Source: a phage. Taken from it: 39,152 nt of DNA. Both the position numbers and the translations under genes were made by a program. Numbering within the stretch: position 1 is the stretch's first letter; every line of letters begins with the position of its first letter. Below, piece after piece: positions 21,972 to 28,521 of the stretch. The notes under the pieces are model-generated. The model was not told the DNA's origin, searched no databases, and worked only from the letters and a program-made list of their open reading frames with translations. The stretch is from the sequence record PX759567.1, one strand, 5' to 3'.

Positions 21972-22454
21972 ATGTCTACTCAAGCCAATCGTAATGCGCT
22001 CGTAGTGGCGCAACTGAAAGGAGACTTCGTGGCGTTCCTGTTCGTCTTATGGAAGGCGTTAAACCTTCCTGTTCCAACTAAGTGTCAGATTGACATGGCT
22101 AAGGTGCTGGCGAATGGAGACAACAAGAAGTTCATCTTACAGGCTTTCCGTGGTATCGGTAAGTCGTTCATCACGTGTGCGTTCGTTGTGTGGTCCTTAT
22201 GGAGAGACCCTCAGTTGAAGATACTTATCGTATCAGCCTCTAAGGAACGTGCAGACGCTAACTCCATCTTTATTAAGAACATCATTGACCTGCTGCCGTT
22301 TCTCAGCGAGTTGAAGCCAAGACCCGGACAGCGTGACTCTGTGATTAGTTTCGACGTAGGTCCAGCTAAGCCTGACCACTCTCCTAGTGTGAAATCGGTA
22401 GGTATCACCGGTCAGTTAACTGGTAGCCGTGCTGACATTATTATTGCGGACGAT
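21972..22454 (+). CDS. 19: terminase large subunit gp19, exon 1
   Basis: N-terminal 161 codons matching T7 gp19 (...[15 protein letters not shown]); frame then hits GAA TAA inside the intron. Confidence 0.9.
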
Positions 22455-23290
22455 GAATAACCATGTCGTCCTTAAACCCATCTAAACAGGGAAACCCGGA
22501 GCCTAACATGGTATACGGCAATCCTGTGCTAAATGAGACAGCCATAAAGAGCCTTATAGGCCCCCTAAGCGTCTCTAAATGCCAAACGACTAAGTAGTAG
22601 GGCCAAGTGGCTCGAAACGGTGGGAGAGCATTTACGGATGCTCTAAGATATAGTCTCGTCTATGGTGAGAAGCCATAGCACCATTTATTACGTAACACAT
22701 AAGGAGTCTAACATGACCACTATGAAGAAAACTCGATATGAAGTAGGTTCAATCCATGAGTCCCCTAAAGGTCCGCTCAAGGTCCTCGAGTACATTCCGG
22801 GATATAAGGACCGCTCAACAGGTAAAAAAGTACATCCTCGCGTAGTAATTCGTATGATGAACACAGGGACTGTGCTCAACGTTCAAACCACGAATATACC
22901 AGATGGTAAGTTTGAGGACTATCGACGTACCACAGTTTACGGCATTGGGTATATAGGGTCTTCCATTAAAATCACCGCTAGAGGGACATTCATCCGGCGT
23001 GTGTATGACCTATGGGCCAACATGCTTAAGCGCGTGGTTCATGAGTATCAGGGAGTATCCGTGGACCCAAGATGGCTCAACTTTACGAATTTCTTGGCGA
23101 CTATTCCGGATGTTAAGGGATATGCTGCGTGGGAGCGTGGTGAGGATGTTCATCTGGATAAAGACCTAGCTGGGAATAAACGATACTCATTGGAGGACTG
23201 TGCGTTCATTCCAGCTAAAGACAACATTCGAGAGTCTTCGTTACGTAGGTGGCGTAAGAAATAACGAGCTTACGTTAAGATAATTATTCG
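22455..23290 (+). mobile_element. group I self-splicing intron (probably IA-type) within gene 19
   Basis: P1: exon GGACGAU (22448-22454) pairs with IGS GUCGUCC (22465-22471), U.G at splice site; ends in G; R/S-like core CGACUA (22587-22592) and AAGAUAUAGUC (22645-22655); P8-like hairpin 22625-22644; ligated exons restore D-D-V-E. Confidence 0.85.
22713..23264 (+). CDS. intron-encoded protein, family not recognised (putative homing endonuclease)
   Basis: 183 aa from ATG 22713 with AAGGAG 6 nt upstream (ORF track starts at 22662); lies 3' of the P7 strand; no canonical HNH, GIY-YIG or LAGLIDADG motif seen. Confidence 0.7.
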   Translation: MTTMKKTRYEVGSIHESPKGPLKVLEYIPGYKDRSTGKKVHPRVVIRMMNTGTVLNVQTTNIPDGKFEDYRRTTVYGIGYIGSSIKITARGTFIRRVYDLWANMLKRVVHEYQGVSVDPRWLNFTNFLATIPDVKGYAAWERGEDVHLDKDLAGNKRYSLEDCAFIPAKDNIRESSLRRWRKK

Positions 23291-24568
23291 GTGGAAATTC
23301 CATCTAACAGTGCAACTATGGGTGCCCGTGAGAAGTTATGGACTCTTGTTCAGGAGTTCGCTGCGTTACTTAAGCCGCTGCCTTCCTCTCGTGTTATCTA
23401 CCTTGGAACACCTCAGACCGAGATGACTCTCTATAAGGAACTTGAGGATAACCGTGGGTATACCACTATTATCTGGCCTGCTCTGTACCCAAGGACACAC
23501 GAAGAGAACCTCTATTACTCACAGCGTCTTGCTCCTATGCTACGTGCTGAGTACGATGAGAACCCTGAGGCACTCGCTGGGACTCCAACAGACCCTGTGC
23601 GCTTTGACCGTGATGACCTGCGTGAGCGTGAGTTGGAATACGGTAAGGCTGGCTTCACACTACAGTTCATGCTTAACCCGAACCTGAGTGATGCTGAGAA
23701 GTACCCTCTGAGGCTCCGTGACGCTATCGTAGCGGCCTTAGACTTAGAGAAGGCCCCAATGCATTACCAGTGGCTTCCGAACCGTCAGAACATCATTGAG
23801 GACCTTCCTAACGTTGGCCTTAAGGGTGATGACCTTCATACTTATCATGATTGCTCCAACAACTCAGGTCAGTACCAACAGAAGATTCTGGTCATTGACC
23901 CTAGTGGTCGCGGTAAGGACGAAACAGGTTACGCTGTGCTGTACACTCTGAACGGCTACATCTACCTAATGGAAGCTGGAGGTTTCCGTGATGGTTACTC
24001 CGATAAGACCCTTGAGTTGCTCGCTAAGAAAGCGAAGCAATGGGGAGTCCAGACGGTTGTCTACGAGAGTAACTTCGGTGACGGTATGTTTGGTAAGGTG
24101 TTCAGTCCTATCCTTCTTAAACACCACAACTGTGCAATGGAAGAGATTCGTGCTCGTGGTATGAAGGAGATGCGTATTTGTGATACCCTTGAGCCAGTCA
24201 TGCAGACTCACCGCCTTGTCATTCGTGATGAGGTCATTAGGGCCGACTACCAGTCCGCTCGTGACGTAGACGGTAAGCATGACGTTAAGTACTCACTGTT
24301 CTACCAGATGACCCGTATCACTCGCGAGAAAGGTGCTCTGGCTCATGATGACCGATTGGATGCCCTTGCGTTAGGCATTGAGTATCTCCGTGAGTCCATG
24401 CAGTTGGATTCCGTTAAGGTCGAAGGTGAAGTAATTGCTGACTTCCTTGAGGAACACATGATGCGCCCTACAGTGTCTGCTACCCACATCATTGAGATGT
24501 CTGTAGGAGGAGTTGATGTGTACTCTGAGGACGATGAGGGTTACGGTACGTCTTTCATTGAGTGGTAA
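23291..24568 (+). CDS. 19: terminase large subunit gp19, exon 2
   Basis: translation (V)[22 protein letters not shown]...SFIEW continues the T7 gp19 sequence; the GTG at 23291 is codon V, not a start. Confidence 0.9.
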
Positions 24569-24605: not shown

Positions 24606-25067
24606 ATGATAAACAAGAAGAAGTATGTTGTCGATAAGGAGACTGGTTGCTGGAACTTTAAGGGATGCAAGACTAAGACAGGCTATGGTCGTCTCCGTGT
24701 AAATGGAGTCCATTGGATGGCTCACAGGTATTCCCTGAGTTGTCATCTAGGTAGACCGATAGCTGATGGAATGGTTGTGATGCACCTTTGTGATAACCCG
24801 TCATGTGTTAACCCTGAGCACCTTAAGGAAGGGACTCAGAAGGAGAATATGGATGACTGTAAGGCCAAAGGTAGGATGTACAGACCGGGGGCCACAGGCA
24901 AACCAAAGACCAGTACGGCGAAGGTTATCTATCACGATGACTGGCGTAAAGACCAAGTTATCCGCTACCATGTACGCTGGAAATGGAAGCCGTCTCGTAT
25001 TGCTGAGAAGATGAGACTATCTATAACGTGGGTTAAGAGGGTCTTAGAGGAGTACGTAAGTCATTGA
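24606..25067 (+). CDS. free-standing HNH homing endonuclease (HNH_3-like)
   Basis: 153-aa ORF, strong RBS TAAGGAGG; motifs GCWNF..TGYGRL..AHRYS..HLCDNPSCVNPEHL..EN; no counterpart at this locus in T7. Confidence 0.85.
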   Translation: MINKKKYVVDKETGCWNFKGCKTKTGYGRLRVNGVHWMAHRYSLSCHLGRPIADGMVVMHLCDNPSCVNPEHLKEGTQKENMDDCKAKGRMYRPGATGKPKTSTAKVIYHDDWRKDQVIRYHVRWKWKPSRIAEKMRLSITWVKRVLEEYVSH

Positions 25068-25119
25068 TATTTGAAAATAGTGAAACAGGTCTAAATGTAT
25101 GTTTTTAAAGGCTGGAATC

Positions 25120-25142
25120 TAATTCGACTCACTATAGGGGAG
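25120..25142 (+). promoter_or_regulatory. T7 RNAP promoter phiOR
   Basis: TAATTCGACTCACTATAGGGGAG, two mismatches to consensus. Confidence 0.75.
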
Positions 25143-25245
25143 AGCCTACCTAAAGATAACTATAAGACTTACTATCAGACTTAAAGTGTCCTATAAGGTA
25201 GGTTGTTATTATTGTTAATACAACCAACATAAAGGGAGGAGACTC

Positions 25246-25395
25246 ATGTTCCGCTTATTGTTGACCTTGTTGCGGCATAGAGTCACCTACCGATTTCTTG
25301 TGGTACTTTGTGCTGCCCTTGGGTACGCATCTCTTACTGGAGACCTCAGTTCACTGGAGTCTACCGTTTGCTCTATACTCACTTGTAGCGATTAA
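25246..25395 (+). CDS. 19.5: gene 19.5 protein
   Basis: 49-aa ORF MFRLLLTLLRHRVTYRFLVVLCAALGYASLTGDLSSLESTVCSILTCSD. Confidence 0.8.
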   Translation: MFRLLLTLLRHRVTYRFLVVLCAALGYASLTGDLSSLESTVCSILTCSD

Positions 25396-25635
25396 GGTCT
25401 TCCTGACCGACTGATGGCTCACCGAGGGATTCAGCGGTATGATTGCATCACACCACTTCATCCCTATAGAGTCAAGTCCTAAGGTATACCCTATAAAGAG
25501 CCTCTAATGGTCTATCCTAAGGTCTATACCTAAAGATAGGCCATCCTATCAGTGTCACCTAAAGAGGGTCTAAGAGAGGGCCTAAGGAGTTCCTAGAGGG
25601 TCCTTTAAAATATACCATAAAAATCTGAGTGACTA

Positions 25636-25800
25636 TCTCACAGTGTACGGACCCAAAGTTCCCCCATAGGGGGTACCTAAAGCCCAGCCAATCACCTAAA
25701 GTCAACCTTCGGTTGACCTTGAGGGTTCCCTAGGGGTTGGGATGACCCTTGGGTTTACCTTTGAGTGTTGCCTTGGGTGTAACCTTGAGTGTCTCTCTGT
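25636..25800. repeat. terminal repeat region / concatemer junction (single copy in this permuted representation)
   Basis: TCTCACAGTGTACGGACC... matches the T7 left-end sequence as recalled; TR extent (about 160 bp) inferred from T7. Confidence 0.5.
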
Positions 25801-25819
25801 GTCCCTATCTGTTACAGTC

Positions 25820-25975
25820 TCCTAAAGTATCCTCCTAAAGTCACCTCCTAAAGTCATTCCTACCGTCTACAACCTAAAGCCTACACCTAAAGACGCCATC
25901 AAGTCAATGCCTATCTTAAAGTTAAAACATAAAGACCATACCTAAAGACACTACATAAAGACCATACCTAAAGAT
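25820..25975. repeat. array of short CCTAAAG-type repeats flanking the terminal repeat
   Basis: repeated CCTAAAG / ACCTAAAGAC units at irregular spacing, as at T7 genome ends. Confidence 0.6.
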
Positions 25976-26022
25976 GCCTTGTTGTTAGCCATAAAGAGAT
26001 AACCTTTAATCATTGTCTTTAT

Positions 26023-26045
26023 TAATACGACTCACTATAAGGAGA
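26023..26045 (+). promoter_or_regulatory. T7 RNAP promoter phiOL
   Basis: TAATACGACTCACTATAAGGAGA. Confidence 0.8.
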
Positions 26046-26097
26046 GACTACTTAAAGAGGCCTTAAAGATGGATTAATTTAAAGATTTATTAAAAAA

Positions 26098-26140
26098 GAG
26101 TATTGACTTAAAGTCTAACCTATAGGATACTTACAGCCAT
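26098..26140 (+). promoter_or_regulatory. host RNAP early promoter A1
   Basis: TTGACT (-35) ... TAGGATACT (-10), spacing about 17. Confidence 0.8.
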
Positions 26141-26224
26141 TGAGAGGGACACGGCGAATAACCATCCCAATCGATACCGGGGTCAACCGGATAAGTAGAC
26201 AGCCTGATAAGTCGTATGAAAAAC

Positions 26225-26270
26225 AGGTATTGACAACACGAAGTAACATGAAGTAAGATACACAGCGCTA
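26225..26270 (+). promoter_or_regulatory. host RNAP early promoter A2
   Basis: TTGACA ... TAAGATAC. Confidence 0.75.
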
Positions 26271-26349
26271 GGTAACACTAGCAGCGTCAACCACTGATAC
26301 GGTGTCTTCTAGGTGACTTAAGCGCACCACGGCACATAAAGTGAAACAA

Positions 26350-26392
26350 AACGGTTGACAACATGAAGTAAACACGGTACGATGTACCACGA
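26350..26392 (+). promoter_or_regulatory. host RNAP early promoter A3
   Basis: TTGACA ... TACGATGTACC. Confidence 0.75.
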
Positions 26393-26479
26393 AATGACGG
26401 AACAGTGAGTCACCACACTGAAAGGTGATGCGGTCTAACGAAACCTGACCAAAGACGCTCTTTAACAATCTGGTAAACG

Positions 26480-26545
26480 GCTCTTGAGTGTACACACGTA
26501 GCGGATAACTCAAGGGTATCGCAAGGTGCCCTTTATGATATCCAC
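26480..26545 (+). promoter_or_regulatory. RNase III site R0.3
   Basis: CTCTTGAGTG ... ACTCAAGGGTATCGCAAGGTGCCCTTTATGAT. Confidence 0.55.
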
Positions 26546-26570
26546 TAACAACACTATGAGGTAACACACA

Positions 26571-26933
26571 ATGGCTATGTCTAACATGACTTATAACAAC
26601 GTTTTCGACCACGCTTACGAAATGCTGAAAGAAAACATCCGTTATGATGACATCCGTGACGCTGATGACCTGCACGATGCAGTACACATGGCAGCCGATA
26701 GCGCCGTTCCGCACTATTACAGCGACATTTTCAGCGTAATGGCAAGCGAGGGCATTGATCTTGAGTTTGAGGACTCTGGTCTTATGCCGGACACCAAGGA
26801 CGTAATCCGTATCCTACAAGCGCGTATCTATGAGCAATTAACGATTGACCTCTGGGAAGACGCTGAGGACTTGCTGAACGAGTATCTTGAGGAAGTCGAG
26901 GAAGATGAAGACTACGAAGAGGATGAAGAGTAA
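26571..26933 (+). CDS. ocr: Ocr, DNA-mimic anti-restriction protein gp0.3
   Basis: 120-aa highly acidic [25 protein letters not shown]...EEDEE. Confidence 0.95.
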
Positions 26934-27088
26934 TGGCTAACAACACCACGCAATACGGTCTGACCGCTCAAACTGTACTGTTTTATAGTGACATGGTGCG
27001 CTGTGGCTTTGATTGGTCGCTCGCAATGTCACACCTTAAGGAACTGTACGAAAACAACAAGGCAATAGCCTTGGAGTCTGCTGAGTGA
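26933..27088 (+). CDS. 0.4: gene 0.4 protein (FtsZ inhibitor in T7)
   Basis: 51-aa [54 protein letters not shown]. Confidence 0.8.
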   Translation: MANNTTQYGLTAQTVLFYSDMVRCGFDWSLAMSHLKELYENNKAIALESAE

Positions 27089-27130
27089 TAAACTCAAGGT
27101 CGCTCCTTGTGAGTGGCCTTTATGATTATC
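27088..27130 (+). promoter_or_regulatory. RNase III site R0.5
   Basis: ACTCAAGGTC ... GGCCTTTATGATT. Confidence 0.55.
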
Positions 27131-27148
27131 ACTTTACTTACGGGAGTA

Positions 27149-27283
27149 ATGTATATGCTTACTATCGGTCTACTCACCGCTCTGGGTCTAGCTGTAGGCG
27201 CATCCTTTGGGAAGTCTTTGGGTGTAGCTGTAGGCTCTTACTTGGTCGCTTGTATCATTACGGGAGCACTGCGCAAATGCTGA
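27149..27283 (+). CDS. 0.5: gene 0.5 small membrane protein
   Basis: 44-aa hydrophobic ORF MYMLTIGLLTALGLAVGASFGK... Confidence 0.6.
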   Translation: MYMLTIGLLTALGLAVGASFGKSLGVAVGSYLVACIITGALRKC

Positions 27284-27414
27284 AATATTACGTTATGCCT
27301 ATCCACACCAATAACGGTGCTACAGTTTGCACACCTGATGGCTTCGCAATGAAACAACGAATCGAACGCCTTAAGCGTGAACTGCGCACCAATCGCAAGC
27401 TCAACAATATCTAA
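27277..27414 (+). CDS. 0.6: gene 0.6 protein
   Basis: 45-aa ORF MLKYYVMPIHTNNGATVCTPDGFAMKQRIERLKRELRTNRKLNNI; start ambiguous (27277 or 27295). Confidence 0.6.
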   Translation: MLKYYVMPIHTNNGATVCTPDGFAMKQRIERLKRELRTNRKLNNI

Positions 27415-27432
27415 TCACATTAACACGGGAGA

Positions 27433-28521
27433 ATGCACAAAGTGAACGCTATCGACATCATGAACACTATCGACGCAATCAAAGCACTGCCAATCTGTGA
27501 ACTTGATAAGCGTCAAGGTATGCTCATTGATTTGCTGGTTGAGATGGTCAACAGCGAAACGTGTGACGGTGAGATCACCAAGCTGGACAAGCCGCTTGAA
27601 TTCCAAGACTGGTGGACTACCTTAAAGTGCTTGACTGCGGACGCTGGATTTATGATGCTCGGTAATGGTCACTTCTCAGCTGCTTATAGCCACCCGCTGC
27701 TGCCTAACAGGGTGATTAAGGTGGGCTTTAAGAAAGAGGATTCAGGCGCTGCATATACCGCATTCTGCCGCATGTATCAGGGTCGTGCTGGTATCCCTAA
27801 CGTCTACGATGTACAGCGTCACGCTGGATGCTATACGGTGGTACTGGATGCACTGAATGATTGCGAGCGTTTCAACAATGATGAACATTATAAATACGCT
27901 GAGATTGCAAGCGACATCATTGACTACAAGTCCGATGAGCACAACGAGTTAACTGGATGGGATGGGGAGTTCGTCGAGACTTGCAAGCTAATCCGCAAGT
28001 TCTTTGAGGGCATCGCTTCGTTCGACATGCACAGTGGGAACATCATGTTCAGTGACGATGGTACGCCATTCATTACCGACCCTGTATCGTTCTCACAGAA
28101 GAAAGACGGTGGTGCATTCAGCATGGACCTTGAGGAACTCATCAAAGAAGTCGAGGAGGTCGCACACCAGAAAGCAATAGACCGCGCTAAGGCACGTAAA
28201 GCACGCCACGTGGGGCGCTTAGAGGCTCGCAAAGTGCAACGCCGCAACCGTAAGGCACGTAAAGCACACAAAGCTAAGCGTGAAAGAATGCTTGCTGCGT
28301 GGCGCATGGCTGAGCGTCAAGAACGACGTAACCATGAGGTAGCTGTGGATGTACTAGGAAGAACCAATAACGCTATGCTATGGGTTAACATGTTCGCTGG
28401 GGACTTTAAGGCGCTTGAAGAACGAATAGCGGCCAACTGGTTAGAGGCTGACCGCATGGCTATCGTTAATGGTATGCCGCTAAACATTGATAAGAAACTT
28501 GACGCAATGCTAATGGGCTGA
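27433..28521 (+). CDS. 0.7: Ser/Thr protein kinase and host transcription shutoff gp0.7
   Basis: 362-aa ORF matching T7 gp0.7 (…[32 protein letters not shown]…). Confidence 0.95.

Follow-up and report, generated by a model that had tools for sequence, protein, structure and literature searches.

A candidate mobile group I intron at the Walker B codons of the large terminase gene in a T7-like phage genome

The T7-like phage sequence PX759567.1 (39,152 nucleotides, analysed over its whole length and called the window below) raises the question of how a phage can package its DNA when gene 19, which encodes the large terminase TerL, is broken by an in-frame stop in the middle of a catalytic motif. 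The gene 19 frame starts at 21972 and runs through GCG GAC GAT (the residues ADD) to 22454, where GAA and a TAA stop follow in frame; it picks up at 23291 with GTG GAA ATT CCA (VEIP) and runs to 24568. An insert of 836 nucleotides (22455-23290) thus separates codons D161 and V162. We consider it highly probable that gene 19 is transcribed together with this insert, and that the insert is a group I intron resembling subgroup IA that splices, and homes by means of the open reading frame (ORF) that it carries.

The restored reading frame and the predicted ribozyme

Removal of the 836-nucleotide insert leaves the reading frame intact: joining 22454 to 23291 gives an ORF of 586 amino acids (aa) that is identical to T7 gp19 at 580 of 586 positions (99%) and matches PDB entry 4BIJ. 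A first-pass annotation of this DNA had placed a splice junction within 22430-22460, between ADD and VEIP, and translation located it precisely there, at 22454/22455 (a slash marks a junction throughout), with the second exon starting at 23291. The same boundary, IIIADD/VE, is used in the phages Vi06, CHRF_10027 and fPS-9, as it is in about 57 IMG/VR loci. Because all of these share the boundary and because the insert matches an Rfam family (E = 3.7e-11), the interruption at IIIADD/VE is not due to chance. The gene and its insert are laid out as follows.

21972-22454, + strand: gene 19 (TerL) exon 1, residues 1-161, with Q39, Walker A and Walker B (ORF translation, match to residues 1-161 of T7 gp19, 4BIJ)
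22455-23290, + strand: predicted group I intron, 836 nucleotides (Rfam RF00028, 49 bits, E = 3.7e-11; scores of relatives; covariation)
23291-24568, + strand: gene 19 exon 2, residues 162-586, with E163 at 23294-23296, C-motif T201 at 23408-23410 and nuclease-domain D364 at 23897-23899
23291-24568, + strand: domain match of exon 2 to PF22530

None of the three annotations of relatives that we inspected, FR667955 (Vi06), NC_047934 (g046/g048) and PQ336905, contains an intron feature. FR667955 lists gene 19 as a pseudogene in two pieces, as if the insertion had inactivated the gene. Inactivation is next to inconceivable to us: phages cannot do without TerL, and still Vi06, the fPS phages and other carriers of the insert were deposited as phage isolates whose hosts are named; purifying selection acts strongly on both exons, as the amino-acid identity to T7 attests; and the ribozyme within the insert is conserved with compensatory changes. 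The conservation of the exons seems, in effect, to have refuted the pseudogene already.

The Rfam model Intron_gpI (RF00028) matches 22415-22678 with 49.0 bits (E = 3.7e-11). A scan of the whole window at the gathering threshold did not list this match and found no other intron. Inserts at the same site elsewhere (in Vi06 and the loci L087, L091, L094, L135 and L144) score 45-72 bits, and most of them, with 50.3-72.1 bits, exceed the gathering score. A MAFFT alignment of the 5' core, made from 28 distinct copies, was analysed with RNAalifold and pair counts, which recovered P1, P3, P4, P5, P6, a P7.2-like hairpin, P8 and P9. Paired cells amount to 94.3%, against 35-42% when the partners are slid by one to three columns; both sides have changed in a compensatory manner in 29 of the 41 pairs; and the covariation score is 0.56 against 0.06-0.11 in the controls, none of 500 shuffles reaching the observed values. 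The elements of the predicted ribozyme are the following.

22448-22454, + strand: 5' strand of P1, exon sequence GGACGAU, pairing with 22465-22471; 5' splice site after U22454
22461-22471, + strand: internal guide sequence, CCAU (P10 partner of GUGG) plus GUCGUCC (3' strand of P1), from pairing and covariation at P10 position +3
22477-22678, + strand: ribozyme core (RNAalifold, pair counts)
22477-80 with 22621-24, + strand: P3 (RNAalifold, pair counts)
22487-92 with 22522-27, + strand: P4 (RNAalifold, pair counts)
22497-99 with 22516-18, + strand: P5 (RNAalifold, pair counts)
Within the core 22477-22678, + strand: P6 (RNAalifold, pair counts)
22600-04 with 22609-13, + strand: P7.2 (RNAalifold, pair counts)
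22625-29 with 22640-44, + strand: P8 (RNAalifold, pair counts)
3' strand within 22645-22655, + strand: P7, GACUA...UAGUC (assigned by eye)
22660-67 with 22672-78, + strand: P9 (RNAalifold, pair counts)
23253-23274, + strand: 3'-terminal hairpin, CGUAAG-loop-CUUACG, into which the intron ORF extends (compensatory variants in relatives)
23290, + strand: terminal G (omega G), 3' splice site 23290/23291 (copies in relatives)

The pairings that involve exon bases are the most telling. In P1, the end of exon 1 (GGACGAU) pairs with the intron sequence GUCGUCC (22465-22471), leaving a U.G wobble at the cleavage site that is kept in 28 of 28 copies, and position -7 is occupied by three pair types (G-C, A-U and U-A) across the copies. 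In P10, the guide CCAU (22461-22464) pairs with the first exon-2 bases GUGG; at position +3, where the first codon of exon 2 has its wobble base, G-C, U-A and A-U pairs are found, the guide matching every time. This covariation between exon and guide bases would otherwise have no explanation, which argues for splicing at these exact bonds. A terminal G ends all correctly delimited intron copies. P7 (GACUA/UAGUC) lies within the AAGAUAUAGUC element at 22645-22655; it was assigned by eye on alignment A4 and shows one compensatory change, in L141 and L145. All five pairs of the P7.2-like hairpin covary, and a P7.1-like hairpin (UUCCGAAAGGAA) is seen in many relatives, not clearly in the PX759567.1 copy. 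These hairpins between P7 and P3', judged without a formal classifier, suggest subgroup IA, possibly IA2-like. Subgroup IA is the usual type among phage group I introns. Taken together, the insert is most likely a genuine group I intron, and we predict that it is self-splicing.

The same covariation bears on another reading of the split annotations, in which a selfish endonuclease gene has been inserted and TerL is made as two separate translation products (162 aa and about 425 aa) that reassemble. The two inspected records other than that of Vi06, those of CHRF_10027 and fPS-9, list two terminase large subunit coding sequences (CDSs) and an 'HNH endonuclease' or a hypothetical protein, and exon 2 in the window begins with GTG, a possible start codon. 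We nevertheless regard separate translation as very improbable, given that what separates the fragments is a complete ribozyme core with covariation, that the covariation of P1 and P10 with exon bases would be purposeless without splicing, that the break would land inside the catalytic DD/VE cluster, and that the first exon-2 codon of relatives is the non-start codon GTT, GTA, ATT or ATA, with no Shine-Dalgarno sequence upstream.

The insertion site in the terminase protein

The predicted intron interrupts a part of TerL that scarcely varies. Among 101 TerLs with 37-55% identity to T7 gp19, 16 columns are invariant, including Q39, R60, K64, D160, D161, E163, T201 and D364. An AlphaFold model of the 98%-identical homologue P0001 (predicted local distance difference test, pLDDT, 92.5), mapped onto our protein via alignment A2, shows a strand (53-58), a loop and a helix (64-78) around GIGKS, with the P-loop at 59-63, and a strand at 156-160 that corresponds to IIIAD. 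Foldseek searches with this model retrieved the PhiV-1 terminase (8DGC) as the closest structure, followed by T4 gp17, Sf6 gp2, D6E, HK97 and P74-26. When the TerL alignment was used for a hidden Markov model (HMM) profile search of the PDB, T7 and PhiV-1 were the only matches. Comparison of the family profile with T4 gp17 by hhalign placed Q39 opposite Q143, GIGKS opposite LGKT, IIIAD160-D161 opposite MIYID255-E256 and GTPQ opposite TTTP. We take the four motifs in this register to be the functionally characterised motifs of T4 gp17. The two motifs relevant here lie at these positions.

22152-22166, + strand: Walker A/P-loop codons G61-S65 (GIGKS), with invariant K64; aligned with T4 gp17 LGKT
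22437-22454, + strand: Walker B codons I156-D161 (IIIADD), with D160 as the Walker B Asp and D161 aligned with T4 Glu256 (invariance, hhalign, model strand)

A 2026 paper on PhiV-1 TerL mutates D161 and calls it the 'ATPase Walker B aspartate' (PMC13601566); since PhiV-1 numbering is offset by +1, this residue is D160 in PX759567.1. The invariance in the 101 TerLs, the model strand, hhalign, the folds found by Foldseek and PMC13601566 all agree on the Walker B assignment. As modelled, IIIAD160 is the Walker B strand and the predicted intron follows directly, splitting the invariant acidic cluster D160-D161/V162-E163. The first-pass annotation had proposed a Walker B-like motif at the junction, and strand 156-160, the invariance of D160, D161 and E163 and their alignment with T4 D255/E256 support it. 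It had also read the junction as carrying the catalytic glutamate; here the Walker B part stands, but by the hhalign register the residue aligned with the catalytic Glu256 of T4 is D161, the last codon of exon 1, and not E163, which is a further invariant acidic residue. The GIGKS Walker A motif that it had noted upstream in exon 1 is likewise confirmed at 22152-22166 by the invariant K64 and the alignment with T4 LGKT. Alignment with characterised terminases, including the model's matches to T4, Sf6, D6E, HK97 and P74-26, does not place the insertion in a non-conserved loop, the outcome that would have spoken against the motif assignment.

Conservation is equally high at the DNA level. Over 80 diverse intron-less gene 19 sequences, the 30 nucleotides centred on the junction rank 71st among 1585 windows, in the top 5% (0.79 against a gene mean of 0.66), and the adjacent 30-nucleotide window, over codons 152-162, is second for conservation.

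The intron ORF and the evidence for mobility

Downstream of the ribozyme core, the intron encodes a protein of its own.

22713-23264, + strand: intron ORF, 183 aa, putative homing endonuclease (Shine-Dalgarno sequence TAAGGAG; phrog_2081 match; no Pfam match; pLDDT 90.7)

This ORF matches phrog_2081, labelled 'HNH endonuclease' (E = 3e-43), and belongs to a family of about 185 aa with 57 members, essentially all of them inside TerL introns at one site, that share 19 invariant residues. A Pfam search with the 57 members returned no family and no HNH match even at E <= 1, and a sequence search of the PDB with the family gave nothing meaningful. H147 of the HLDKD motif is variable (V, C, S, R or L), L148, K150, D151 and N171 are invariant, and the 57 members show no catalytic His that is invariant where the first strand ends. 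The model of the protein (pLDDT 90.7) consists of an N-terminal beta-barrel, a helical middle part and a C-terminal strand-strand-helix; its structural matches in Foldseek are mostly SH3/Tudor-like barrels and, among viral models, many uncharacterised phage proteins, some of them in other homing contexts. We therefore regard the product as putatively a homing endonuclease, perhaps one of an atypical beta-beta-alpha-Me kind, and do not file it as a member of the HNH family. The hairpin at 23253-23274, which takes in the final codons of the ORF together with its stop, ends 16 nucleotides before the 3' splice site, and relatives keep it by compensatory change (CGUAAG/CUUACG, UGCAGA/UCUGCA and GCAAG/CUUGC). 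This hairpin might couple translation of the ORF to folding of the 3' splice site.

The intron is sporadic in its distribution. In the phage collection, the intron sequence is present in 24 records and an uninterrupted junction in 255; the 24 comprise one Teseptimavirus record (99.4% identical), the Vi06 group of Salmonella Typhi phages (88-89%) and Yersinia fPS phages (Helsettvirus, 71%). The same site is occupied in two genera, as well as in the metagenomic T7-type loci of IMG/VR, and its occupation among near-identical T7-like backbones is patchy. Scanning IMG/VR with the ORF family yielded 59 loci, about 57 of which have the ORF inside a T7-type TerL in the layout RAD-hhhx-DD/intron/[VI]E. 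The ORF proteins form 59 clusters with 40-99% identity. Three distant members, one from a human oral metagenome, show TerS, an N-terminal TerL fragment (by the gene calls, 164-213 aa), the ORF and a C-terminal TerL part of about 420 aa. An exact-pattern scan of metagenome contigs with a 19-mer of the core gave no match, and in IMG/VR a 36-mer matched Vi06 alone, relatives being recovered via the ORF protein.

The sequence flanking the insert carries a possible trace of its arrival. T7 and Vi06 differ at 169 sites of gene 19, and PX759567.1 follows T7 at 117 of them; the five informative sites nearest the junction (-4, -1, +3, +12 and +21) all follow the intron-bearing Vi06, the longest such run in the gene (P ~ 7e-4 at this pre-specified place). 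The run looks like a co-conversion tract of 25-60 nucleotides, a remnant of the intron's entry into a T7-like backbone. With sporadic presence at one conserved site and flanking co-conversion, the marks by which homing introns are recognised, this intron is apparently mobile.

Alternatively, the intron might splice without being mobile any longer, its ORF encoding a maturase-like or DNA-binding passenger and its distribution reflecting vertical descent plus ordinary recombination. The ORF lacks a nuclease signature in the Pfam and PDB sequence searches, its putative catalytic His is variable and its structural matches are mostly barrels of the SH3/Tudor-like type, all of which would suit such a passenger. 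We judge this unlikely in view of the 19 residues that remain invariant over 57 members housed essentially at one site, the patchy distribution among near-identical backbones, the co-conversion tract centred on the junction, the annotation of PHROG relatives as HNH endonucleases and the fold relatives in other homing contexts.

The homing site itself differs in a revealing manner between occupied and empty alleles. Exon 1 ends in GAC GAT in all 61 intron-bearing loci extracted with the core. Among the intron-less alleles compared (L006-L085 and L152-L231), GAT GAC stands in 79 of 79 close relatives, T7 included, and GACGAT in none of the 79; GACGAT occurs in 8 of 80 diverse genes, and 68% of the intron-less alleles have GAT-GAC. 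The first-pass annotation had proposed an intron-less target sequence that turns out not to be that of T7, which carries GCGGATGAC/GTTGAGATTCC with C at position -1, the real T7 target being GCGGATGAC/GTTGAGATTCCG. The U.G wobble cannot form without T at -1, so this base at the least has to be brought in by homing. The eight diverse intron-less GACGAT genes could be susceptible alleles or precise intron losses. We also considered avoidance of the homing site through synonymous codons and dropped it, as other conserved Asp codons range from 0.09 to 0.76 GAT and D160 and D161 are no outliers.

On the reading that we favour, of an intron that splices and homes, the ribozyme would fold so that the guide GUCGUCC and the exon sequence GGACGAU form P1, with the U.G pair at the cleavage site. 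Free guanosine would cut after U22454; the guide CCAU would then hold exon-2 GUGG in P10, and exon 1 would attack past the terminal G23290. Ligation of GAU/GUG would encode ...IIIAD160-D161/V162-E163... and a full-length TerL 99% identical to T7 gp19. In unspliced transcripts, translation would end one codon into the intron, cutting Walker A and Walker B off from E163, the C-motif and the nuclease domain, and packaging should depend on splicing, an inference that the first-pass annotation had put more firmly, calling splicing obligatory. The intron ORF most likely encodes a site-specific DNA endonuclease which, in a mixed infection, would cut intron-less gene 19 near ADD/VE, and repair from the intron-bearing genome would copy the intron with a few tens of flanking bases. 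The site would make a good target because few parts of the gene are as conserved as the DNA that encodes the catalytic acidic cluster, and an imprecise deletion there would be lethal as well.

Several points weigh against this scenario. The case for splicing and homing is computational. The PX759567.1 copy scores 49.0 bits, 1 bit under the RF00028 gathering score of 50. The hhalign probability against T4 gp17 is low, at 9% (single-sequence template), and the alignment depends on four motifs falling into register together. Targets without the intron have C at -1, so that homing must co-convert this base for the product to splice.

Outside the intron, genes 19 and 19.5 are separated by a free-standing HNH_3 gene (24606-25067, + strand, 153 aa, phrog_6254), in a gap of 677 nucleotides in the window against 258 in T7. 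Vi06 carries the same gene, annotated '7.7 predicted endonuclease'. The first-pass annotation had counted two encoded endonucleases as candidates for cleaving the intron-less site; this second one is a canonical HNH_3 protein encoded outside the intron, and hhalign detected no relation between the intron-ORF family and the window's HNH_3 protein. Further downstream (25100-28500), the late genes 16, 17, 17.5, 18, 18.5, 19 and 19.5 lead directly into early genes. An ORF at 26571-26933 presumably resembles T7 Ocr (gp0.3), and another at 27433-28521 lies at what we take to be the position of the T7 0.7 kinase. Compared with the T7 map, the window is therefore a circular permutation that runs across the junction of the genome ends.

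Related elements and significance

The gene 19 intron is a well-supported new copy, with many relatives, of a familiar class of element. The T4 introns in td, nrdB and nrdD/sunY belong to subgroup IA2 and encode the homing endonucleases I-TevI, I-TevII and I-TevIII. Like the gene 19 intron as predicted here, they are phage self-splicing group I introns in essential genes (of nucleotide and DNA metabolism) that have a AAGAUAUAGUC-type J8/7-P7, additional hairpins in the interval from P7 to P3' and an ORF that loops out from the ribozyme, and that home with co-conversion of flanking exons, which for T4 is established knowledge. They differ in that our intron sits in the terminase of a T7-like podovirus, that its ORF follows P9 instead of lying in P6 or P7.1/P7.2, and that its product is neither GIY-YIG nor canonical HNH.

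Introns in DNA polymerase genes are reported for the T7-like phages PhiI and W31 (Bonocora and Shub 2004, as cited in a passage of PMC11878797) and for Xanthomonas phage phiL7 (Lee et al. 2009, as cited in a passage of PMC9145550), all of them group I. The PhiI/W31 intron, compared here by description only, shares with ours the phage group, the element class and the location in an essential enzyme gene, gene 5 instead of gene 19. Terminase genes are also known targets: a group I intron is reported in the terminase of Lactobacillus phage LL-H (Mikkonen and Alatossava 1995, as cited in a passage of PMC9610469), and others, with splicing shown experimentally, in the large terminase gene of Bastillevirinae such as SIOphi (TerL; 2025, text excerpts of PMC11878797). 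These likewise interrupt the large terminase gene, some with endonuclease ORFs, in phage lineages and TerL families unrelated to the host of the gene 19 intron. According to the same excerpts, TerL-intron ORFs there belong to phrog_559 (Vsr-like), phrog_2081 ORFs occur in polymerase introns, and phrog_2081 is labelled HNH, with an I-HmuI-like NUMOD. The proteins I-HmuI and I-BasI of SPO1-like polymerase introns are comparable to the gene 19 ORF product in being intron-encoded, in their PHROG neighbourhood and in the predicted C-terminal beta-beta-alpha with an invariant Asn; the gene 19 protein differs from them in having neither a Pfam HNH match nor an invariant catalytic His, and an N-terminal SH3-like barrel in place of an HNH domain. 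Inteins, too, favour the P-loop motif as well as Walker B in ATPases and occur in terminases (PMC4760082). They are similarly selfish elements that occupy whichever catalytic motif of an essential ATPase is most conserved, but they splice at the protein level, whereas the in-frame stops and the ribozyme of the gene 19 insert imply RNA splicing.

The gene 19 intron is described nowhere in the literature available to us, whose coverage leaves out the original Vi06 paper, possibly mentioning the interruption; the fPS-phage paper makes no reference to one. In some relatives the same TerL gene holds another group I intron (Rfam 59.6 bits), at L144:2539-2757 and also in L146, both IMG/VR contigs of about 43.5 kb. 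It follows ...VIDPAGCG inside nuclease motif I, five residues past the catalytic Asp equivalent to T7 D364, and its ORF is a different, GIY-YIG-like one (GYIGITKNS...). Introns seem to target the catalytic motifs of TerL repeatedly. Tentatively, and with rather more doubt than confidence, we propose that T7-type TerL hosts a widespread intron lineage, undescribed in the searchable literature, dedicated to the Walker B codons; that its ORF represents a new homing-endonuclease family (an SH3-like barrel plus an atypical beta-beta-alpha, with invariant K, D and N and no catalytic His); that the GIY-YIG-ORF intron at nuclease motif I in some relatives is independent; and that the catalytic motifs of TerL are recurrent homing hot-spots in podoviruses.

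Recognising the intron corrects the annotation of gene 19, listed as a pseudogene or as two terminase genes in Typhi Vi phages and therapeutically relevant Yersinia phages, and helps TerL-based taxonomy and detection pipelines, by which split genes can be missed. The putative endonuclease family, with its long, conserved and defined target, could be mined for rare-cutting enzymes. The locus offers a clean example of a selfish element within a catalytic acidic cluster and, with a TerL 99% identical to that of T7, the most tractable phage system, a ready model for homing, co-conversion and the splicing of the transcripts of the very fast T7 RNA polymerase.

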